Assembly (NCBI RefSeq): GCF_965641715.1
Contig: NZ_OZ282459.1
Reading direction: 5' to 3' (one strand)
Length of the DNA: 4,779 nt
Source of the DNA: Escherichia coli
GTDB taxonomy: Bacteria; Pseudomonadota; Gammaproteobacteria; Enterobacterales; Enterobacteriaceae
Positions 1,218-1,746 of this stretch are shown piece by piece. Position 1 is the first letter of the stretch. The number at the start of each line of letters is the position of its first letter. A program made the translations under genes and the position numbers. A model generated the notes under the pieces. It searched no databases. It was not told the origin of the DNA and saw only the letters and a program-made list of their open reading frames with translations.

Positions 1218-1224
1218 TCAAACG

Positions 1225-1252
1225 AAAAAACCGACTGGGGAGTCGGTTTTTT
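1225..1252 (-). terminator. RNA I rho-independent terminator (also forms RNA II 5' stem-loop I)
   Basis: aaaaaa-ccgact-gggg-agtcgg-tttttt: 6-bp GC-rich stem (1231-1236 / 1241-1246), 4-nt loop, flanked by A6 and T6 runs. Confidence 0.65.
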
Positions 1253-1326
1253 CGAGGGTTCAGTAAGTTGGGGAACTTCTGAACCGTGGTAACAGGGTGT
1301 ACAAGACCGCTGAAACCAAATTCTGT
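1225..1326 (-). ncRNA. RNAI: RNA I antisense copy-number control RNA (~100 nt)
   Basis: Minus-strand transcript positioned as in pBR322: 5' end opposite ccaaattctgt (1316-1326; pBR322 CCAAATACTGT), 3' end at hairpin plus U-run (1225-1252). Fully antisense to the RNA II 5' region. Confidence 0.7.
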
Positions 1327-1332
1327 TATTCC

Positions 1333-1362
1333 AGTTTAGCCTCTCTAAGGCTGATACTTCAA
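1333..1362 (-). promoter_or_regulatory. RNA I promoter (-35 TTGAAG, -10 TAAACT on the minus strand)
   Basis: Reverse complement of cttcaa (1357-1362) gives TTGAAG; reverse complement of agttta (1333-1338) gives TAAACT; 18-bp spacer. Same arrangement as pBR322 RNA I promoter (TTGAAG / TACACT). Confidence 0.55.
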
Positions 1363-1730
1363 GAACTCTCACTCAGTAAATCTTGTACACCCCTTTACTC
1401 ATGGCTGCTGCCAGTGGCGCTTTGTCGTGTCTTTCCGGGTTGGACTCAAGTCGATAGTTACCGGAACAGGCGCAGCAGTCGGACTGAACGGGGGGTTCGT
1501 GCATACAGTCCAGCTTGGAGCGAACTGCCTACCCGGAACTGAGTGTCAGGCGTGGAATGAGATAAACGCGGCCATAACAGCGGAATGACACCGGTAAACC
1601 GAAAGGCAGGAACAGGAGAGCGCACGAGGGAGCCACCAGGGGGAAACGCCTGGTATCTTTATAGTCCTGTCGGGTTTCGCCACCACTGATTTGAGCGTCA
1701 GATTTCGTGATGCTTGTCAGGGGGGCGGAG

Positions 1731-1746
1731 CCTATGGAAAAACGGC
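1731..1746 (+). other. oriV: RNA II to DNA transition point of the ColE1-type origin
   Basis: cctatggaaaaacggc follows the G-rich caggggggcggagc block; matches the pBR322/p15A origin (CCTATGGAAAAACGCC), where RNase H processing and leading-strand synthesis start at the A run. Confidence 0.6.

Follow-up and report, generated by a model that had tools for sequence, protein, structure and literature searches.

Incompatibility between ColE1-type plasmids is determined by loop-loop kissing (Tomizawa; summarised in PMC9458437). Directed evolution experiments by Chaillou et al. (2022) showed that compatibility cannot be predicted from loop differences alone; it forms a continuum where interference can be graded, asymmetric and non-reciprocal (PMC9458437). 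The closest described relative of the replicon studied here is that of pCS36-4CPA, a Citrobacter plasmid reported in 2016. According to that report, the loops of its stem-loops 1 and 2 both read G-G-G-G and that of stem-loop 3 reads G-U-A-C-A-A-G, ColA has the same two GGGG loops, and the authors found no rom gene in pCS36-4CPA (PMC5935869). The paper also predicts an RNA II of 521 nt and describes the -35 box of P1 as the same, and the oriV sequence as identical, across the family (PMC5935869).

The window, i.e., the whole stretch of DNA analysed here (4,779 bases), corresponds to an entire circular, mobilizable ColE1-family plasmid of 4.78 kb. It harbors a ParA-family gene with two small ORFs, a ColE1-type origin and the mobilization genes mobC, mbeA, mbeB and mbeD. 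MOB-suite typed it as mobilizable, MOBP and rep_cluster_2335, the latter being common to the window plasmid, pACYC184 (p15A) and pCS36-4CPA, and a Pfam search of eight window ORFs detected no Rep-family domain. Plasmid NZ_CP122725.1 of the pig ETEC strain ETEC1747 is 100% identical to the window except for one G in a G-run, and Salmonella Infantis pR13.1986_4k (NZ_CP129389.1) differs from it at 7 positions. We estimate at about 85% the probability that positions 1218-1742 represent the RNA II pre-primer of a ColE1-family theta replicon of the p15A-like clade, with RNA I on the opposite strand, the loop type of pCS36-4CPA, a mosaic structure and a mob module devoid of rop. The features of this region are as follows.

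1182..1211, + strand: putative RNA II promoter P2 (-35 TTGACG at 1182-1187, 18-nt spacer, -10 TACTCT at 1206-1211), placed by position relative to the P2 of ColE1 and p15A
1218..1742, + strand: RNA II pre-primer of ~520 nt, 5' end at ~1217-1220, both ends assigned by homology
1326-1221, - strand: RNA I, the antisense copy-number and incompatibility RNA, placed by Rfam and by homology of its 5' end to ColE1 ACAGUAUUUGG
1325..1394, + strand: hypervariable segment (RNA I promoter and RNA II stem-loop IV region), delimited by identity comparison
1333..1362, - strand: putative RNA I promoter P1 (-35 TTGAAG at 1362-1357, -10 TAAACT at 1338-1333), placed by homology
1395..1745, + strand: p15A-like RNA II body, delimited by identity to p15A
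1738-1742, + strand: oriV, RNA-to-DNA switch, at an A5 tract within the conserved GGAGCCTATGGAAAAACGG
1746..2043, + strand: p15A-like region 3' of oriV, reaching into an oriT/bom-like region (~1985-2043), delimited by identity to p15A

Alignment to ColE1, pMB1, p15A and CloDF13 showed that the motif GGAGCCTATGGAAAAACG is conserved at 1727-1744, and that the RNA II body carries conserved G-runs at 1489-1500 and 1716-1730. The window therefore has an RNA II body with G-rich elements and an oriV motif at ~520-555 nt from the RNA II start, a feature that marks membership of the family. The second such feature, an antisense RNA I of ~105 nt with three stem-loops and complementarity to the 5' end of the primer transcript, was found as well. 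Indeed, the Rfam model RNAI (RF00106) matched 1222-1324 on the - strand with 95.6 bits (E=8.6e-18; gathering score 47), and RNA I folded into three hairpins with a minimum free energy of -43.2 kcal/mol (z = -7.3 versus shuffles) and with the loops, in RNA I sense, CUUGUAC, CCCC and CCCC. The fold that the first-pass annotation had proposed as a way to define the three loops thus did define them. In a consensus fold of 10 family members the three hairpins were kept, and 10/29 pairs showed compensatory changes.

Promoters were more difficult to place. A strict consensus scan of 1100-2160 gave no sigma-70 promoter, and P1 and P2 are therefore assigned by homology only. The placement of P2 is based on the ColE1/p15A P2, which we take to be TTGAGA-17-TAATCT; only 3/6 positions of this presumed ColE1 -10 box (TAATCT) agree with TATAAT. 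At P1, all five references retain the CTTCAAGAAC block, and the -10 box of the window aligns with ColE1 TACACT. Likewise, the oriT/bom-like assignment at ~1985-2043 is founded on homology to ColE1 and on what we take to be the bom sequence of pBR322.

Two further observations concern this region. The parA-family gene and RNA II diverge from a 95-bp gap in which an imperfect inverted repeat at 1170-1205 (ACGCTTTCCTTGACGTT ... AACGTCAGCGT) overlaps the putative RNA II -35 box. This repeat may act as an operator through which parA regulation is coupled to primer transcription. Additionally, PGAP calls a short ORF ("replication initiation protein"/hypothetical) at ~1242-1373 (-), inside the non-coding RNA I/RNA II region. 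Equivalent calls exist in many ColE1-type plasmids (WP_071531517.1 in ColE1, WP_001505258.1 in the window), and this looks like a systematic mis-annotation.

By analogy with what is established for the family, RNA II would be transcribed from P2, form an R-loop at the origin near 1740 and be cut by RNase H to yield the primer for DNA polymerase I. Kissing between the loops of the three RNA I stem-loops and their complements in nascent RNA II would prevent the primer from maturing, and would thereby set the copy number and determine which related plasmids interfere.

To compare the window with the classical origins, we aligned it to ColE1 (NC_001371), CloDF13 (NC_002119.1), p15A (the pACYC184 record) and pMB1 (a vector record). 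RNA I (1222-1324) was 67% identical to p15A, 56-57% to ColE1/pMB1 and 79% to CloDF13, and the adjacent segment 1325-1394 was 41%, 46-48% and 48% identical, respectively. From there on, identity to p15A (pACYC184 copy) was 92.7% over 1395-1545, 98.7% over 1546-1620, 99.2% over 1621-1745, 93.9% over 1746-1975 and 100% over 1976-2008. The diverged RNA I region and the p15A-like part thus contrast sharply (34/103 versus 2/200 differences, Fisher p=6e-16). This is in good agreement with the first-pass annotation, in which the 3' part of RNA II and the region downstream had been described as nearly identical to p15A (92.7-100% from 1395 to 2008). It had also described the RNA I segment as unlike both pBR322 and p15A, which is correct (56-57% and 67%), but had located it at ~1260-1390 instead of 1326-1221. 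These coordinates were off by ~40-65 bases, since both the Rfam match at 1222-1324 and the homology of the 5' end to ColE1 place RNA I further upstream.

We then considered the loops, taken from folds of RNA II and RNA I of the window and all references. In RNA II sense, the window loops are cuGGGGag (I), guuGGGGaac (II) and gguGUACAAGacc (III), and p15A, ColE1 and pMB1 each differ from the window in stem-loops I, II and III. When identical loops are taken as the mark of an incompatibility type, the window belongs neither to the p15A type nor to the ColE1/pMB1 type. It does not belong to the CloDF13 type either, two loops being the same and the third differing. On the other hand, it shows GGGG, GGGG and GUACAAG on a p15A-like RNA II body, the combination that characterizes the specificity of pCS36-4CPA. 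Since the loop set of the window is identical to the published pCS36-4CPA set, the architecture of a p15A-like body with a diverged RNA I is already published. The novelty implied earlier for the diverged RNA I is thus lost (97% identity and all three loops identical to pCS36-4CPA; 79% identity and two identical loops to CloDF13). Loop identity to a known group had been named at the outset as an observation that would count against a separate type; we found none with ColE1, pMB1 or p15A, two of three loops with CloDF13 and three of three with pCS36-4CPA.

To determine how widespread this origin is, we searched for its sequence in other records. The 196-base 5' segment had matches in 678 PLSDB records and in 185 E. 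coli complete-genome records, and the RNA I region is present at an identity of at least 99% in about 30 plasmid records (E. coli, Salmonella and Shigella). An exact 42-nt signature covering the second and third loops was present in 14 species-representative genomes, mostly Enterobacterales, the carriers being Tatumella, Enterobacter, Hafnia, Dickeya, Pectobacterium, Kosakonia, Cedecea and a few assemblies with odd taxon labels. The first loop was also identical in 14/14 of these genomes. The stem of stem-loop I occurred in three compensatory versions (GAC/GTC, GCC/GGC and ACC/GGT), the loops being invariant among the relatives. The loop signature was additionally found on plasmids of E. coli, Enterobacter and Citrobacter. 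As a natural specificity class, the pCS36-type RNA I is widespread; judging from its conservation, the replicon is evidently functional. A degenerate, non-functional origin was considered and rejected, as about 30 independent plasmid records, representing several genera, preserve the replicon at an identity of at least 99%.

As to the odd taxon labels, the assembly labelled Pseudomonas sp. A-RE-19 contains a circularisable 4906-bp contig that is 99.9% identical to the window and has a 127-bp terminal overlap, and assemblies labelled Kushneria, Vogesella and a Clostridia MAG also have the loop signature. These carriers could reflect either contamination or a host range beyond Enterobacterales.

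As evidence on compatibility, we took the natural co-residence of plasmids in complete genomes. Strain ETEC1746 harbors a 5128-bp sister of the window plasmid together with a 5261-bp colicin E1 plasmid whose RNA I is 100% identical to ColE1 (no loop shared), and BE311 harbors a 5152-bp sister together with a 4668-bp vector whose RNA I is identical to pMB1 (no loop shared); antibiotic selection probably acted on the BE311 vector. For p15A and CloDF13, the cases concern same-loop relatives (RNA I ~91-98% identical) rather than the exact window plasmid. Thus, in E. coli PSJ-42 a 4963-bp plasmid with all three window loops resides with a 4051-bp retron plasmid whose aligned loops are as in p15A (no loop shared), and in E. 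coli EC28 a 3684-bp plasmid with all three window loops resides with a 9294-bp plasmid whose RNA I is identical to CloDF13 (two loops shared). Finally, Enterobacter sp. MGH 7 carries a 5411-bp same-loop plasmid and a 2511-bp relative that share the third loop only. The other small plasmid of ETEC1747 (6645 bp), considered as a possible second ColE1-type plasmid, is a cloacin-like MobQ plasmid with a Rep protein and no RNA I, and so has no bearing on compatibility; the same is true of the 6646-bp plasmid of ETEC1732. Records with adjacent accession numbers were mostly large virulence plasmids of the F type. The p15A-loop ColE1-type plasmid of PSJ-42, pPSJ-42_9 (4051 bp), encodes a retron Se72-type reverse transcriptase and effector, i.e., a defence system on a Col plasmid.

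The 20 E. coli records with the window RNA I at an identity of at least 99% each come from a different strain, and the sole double occurrence of this RNA I is on one molecule, pUTME-12-6 (NZ_CP157101.1, 9144 bp). In this molecule, two copies of the window plasmid are joined head to tail, giving two origins, and one of its mbeA genes is shortened by ~400 bp; it is either a real multimer, a deletion heterodimer or a long-read assembly artefact. Co-residence with other types and the lack of same-type pairs among these records together form the pattern predicted for a distinct specificity type. Among the matches listed for E. coli complete genomes, no strain had both a window-type RNA I at 99% or more and a p15A- or CloDF13-type RNA I at 95% or more; with ~20 carriers, the overlap expected by chance is <1, so that this absence carries no weight.

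As all three loops are unlike those of ColE1, pMB1 and p15A, compatibility with those plasmids is a reasonable inference. Compatibility with ColE1 and p15A plasmids had indeed been suggested in the first-pass annotation, and the differing loops and the co-residence cases make this plausible, but the argument from loops does not suffice, given that loop differences alone are not predictive (PMC9458437). Nor does co-residence in an assembly prove compatibility: it may itself reflect selection, and colicin/cloacin or toxin-antitoxin plasmids may be retained by addiction. With three loops unlike ColE1, pMB1 and p15A and one unlike CloDF13, a separate, coexisting specificity type is expected. On the basis of loops and genome co-occurrence, the window replicon probably coexists with ColE1-, pMB1-, p15A- and CloDF13-type plasmids. 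A "p15A-like" origin call or an assignment to MOB-suite rep_cluster_2335 hence does not imply p15A incompatibility behaviour. If validated, the pCS36-type origin could provide multi-plasmid work with one more compatible origin of the ColE1 family; for the rest, the significance of these data goes little beyond annotation.

The EC28 pair bears on whether the replicon is fully independent. Its RNA I might cross-inhibit the RNA II of CloDF13/ColA-type origins, leading to partial or asymmetric incompatibility. CloDF13 has the same loops in stem-loops I (cuGGGGag) and II (guuGGGGaac) and an RNA I region that is 79% identical, and ColA has the same two loops according to the pCS36-4CPA paper (PMC5935869). 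Furthermore, compatibility is a continuum and not necessarily reciprocal (PMC9458437). However, in EC28 the 3684-bp window-loop plasmid and the 9294-bp plasmid with CloDF13 RNA I are both closed circles in one complete genome, the third loop differs from CloDF13 at 4/7 positions, and the stems differ by compensatory changes. We consider such cross-inhibition somewhat unlikely, and favor a pCS36-4CPA-type replicon of its own specificity.

Comparison of the relatives segment by segment showed that the modules of the origin assort independently. Most same-loop relatives have the same RNA I cassette on a p15A-like RNA II body (96-100% over 1546-1745), and even among them the identity over 1325-1394 is only 72-79%. 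Beyond oriV, a p15A-like segment 1746-1860 is confined to the window lineage and pCS36-4CPA (85-100% identical to the window), the other same-loop plasmids being at 30-53%. Over 1746-2043 these other plasmids are unrelated (44-53%). The 5152-bp plasmid of BE311 follows the window at 99.6% identity as far as 1744 and diverges beyond. For the 5128-bp sister plasmids, identity to the window is 99.66% over 1-2043 and 94% over 4210-4779, and the part from 2043 to 4210 is taken up by another mob block (72% identical) together with rop. The origin can thus be described as a mosaic of exchangeable modules, namely RNA I cassette, RNA II body, post-oriV segment and rop-mob block.

This also explains the status of rop. 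No significant tblastn match was obtained in the window with ColE1 Rop, and no Pfam Rop domain was found in the eight ORFs searched, which bears out the earlier remark that no rom/rop gene is visible in the window. In contrast, the 5128-bp and 5152-bp sisters encode a Rop (WP_000165985.1) identical to ColE1 Rop. Because these sisters have the same origin and carry rop, the absence of rop belongs to the swapped oriT-cer-like block and not to the origin type; in the window, the oriT-to-cer block is a mob module devoid of rop, which would account for the missing Rop/Rom helper. Loss of Rom is expected to raise the copy number somewhat. Positions 4329-4356, close to where the swapped rop-mob block has its breakpoint at 4210, read GGTGCGGGCAA-CGGATG-TTATGGTAAAT, which resembles what we take to be the XerC/XerD core of ColE1 cer. 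The breakpoints adjoin the oriT-like region and this cer-like core, and this fits a recombination via oriT and cer flanking the rop-relaxase region, which earlier work had postulated according to Ares-Arroyo et al. 2021 (PMC8683028). Modular exchange in small Col plasmids has been discussed before, and the window adds a further example that involves the RNA I cassette, the post-oriV segment and the rop-mob block.

The contrast between RNA I and the RNA II body could also have arisen without exchange of an RNA I cassette, by accelerated local divergence of a p15A-like ancestor under diversifying selection. Single loop mutations are a known source of new specificities, and the low identity over 1325-1394 among same-loop plasmids (72-79%) indicates that this segment is hypervariable and changes fast. 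However, the similarities are incongruent: RNA I is closer to CloDF13 (79%) than to p15A (67%), whereas the body is 93-99% identical to p15A versus 54-83% to CloDF13. Moreover, one RNA I cassette is found on unrelated downstream segments, one body is found with different RNA I cassettes, and sharp breakpoints occur at conserved blocks near 1395-1404, 1745 and 2043. Local divergence as the source of the contrast is therefore unlikely, and we retain the mosaic reading.

A bolder version of this mosaic reading is distinctly unlikely. Here, the RNA I cassette (~1220-1400) would be an exchangeable specificity module between conserved blocks (the P2/AAACGAAAAAACC block and GGCTGCTGCCAGTGGCG), recombining among p15A-like, CloDF13-like and other origins, and the twin GGGG loops would also allow register-shifted or partial kissing. 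If this were true, a graded, asymmetric interference network with CloDF13/ColA-type plasmids would replace clean incompatibility groups.

The five classical ColE1-type origins also include RSF1030. That the RNA I region is of the RSF1030 incompatibility type, and the replicon a plain member of a classical group, is highly improbable. Indirect evidence against it is that the authors of pCS36-4CPA compared RSF1030 (J01784) and, in the available part of their paper, named only ColA as sharing the loops (PMC5935869).

Outside the origin, several observations on the plasmid deserve mention. A ParA-family ATPase (Pfam AAA_31/CbiA/MipZ) is encoded at 241-1125 (-), next to an overlapping ORF of 133 aa (4622-4779 joined to 1-244, -). 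No ParB-like domain was detected in this ParA-associated cargo module, which gave only a sub-threshold Rho_N match. The pair could be a putative partition system, which would be unusual on a high-copy Col plasmid. The G-run mentioned above consists of nine Gs at 2453-2461, in the overlap of mobC and mbeA; NZ_CP122725.1 is one G shorter there, and with one G fewer RefSeq annotates an 1818-nt "mbeA". The length difference could be a homopolymer error in sequencing or assembly, or a slippage site. Finally, a GC-rich hairpin at 4580-4622 (AAAAGCCACCTCACAGGTGGCTTTT) lies between convergent ORFs with A- and T-runs on its flanks, and Rfam isrD matched it below threshold (26.7 bits versus 37). We predict that it is most likely a bidirectional intrinsic terminator.

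Taken against the known systems, the window resembles p15A over 1395-2008 (95.6%), that is, in the RNA II body, oriV, the downstream region and the start of bom/oriT, but differs from it in all three RNA I/RNA II loops, in RNA I (67%) and in the RNA I promoter/stem-loop IV region (41%). With ColE1/pMB1 (pBR322, pUC) it has in common the replication mechanism, the architecture, the conserved blocks around the G-runs and oriV, and homologous mbe-type mobilization genes (~72%), whereas every loop is different, RNA I is only 56-57% identical and rop is missing from the window. CloDF13 has identical loops in stem-loops I and II, on stems with compensatory changes, and an RNA I region at 79%; it differs in the third loop, where GUACAAG of the window faces the aligned CloDF13 stretch UUUCGCAG with a predicted hairpin loop CGC, in the RNA II body (54-83% with large indels) and in the downstream regions, which are unrelated.

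The likeness is greatest to pCS36-4CPA (Citrobacter sp., KM373703; Saudi J Biol Sci 2016), with the same three loops and 97% identity in RNA I. Both plasmids have a p15A-like RNA II body (95% over 1395-1545 and 99.5% over 1546-1745), a p15A-like post-oriV region, no rop, a backbone of MOB(HEN)-type mbe genes and rep_cluster_2335. They differ in the backbone (82.6% over 1220-4240), in 1325-1394 (only 75%) and in the stem of stem-loop I, which shows a compensatory A:T to C:G change, and their cargo is a restriction endonuclease in pCS36-4CPA versus the ParA-family module in the window. Overall, the window has an ordinary ColE1-family origin of the p15A-like kind, with an RNA I specificity type that is already described and widespread.
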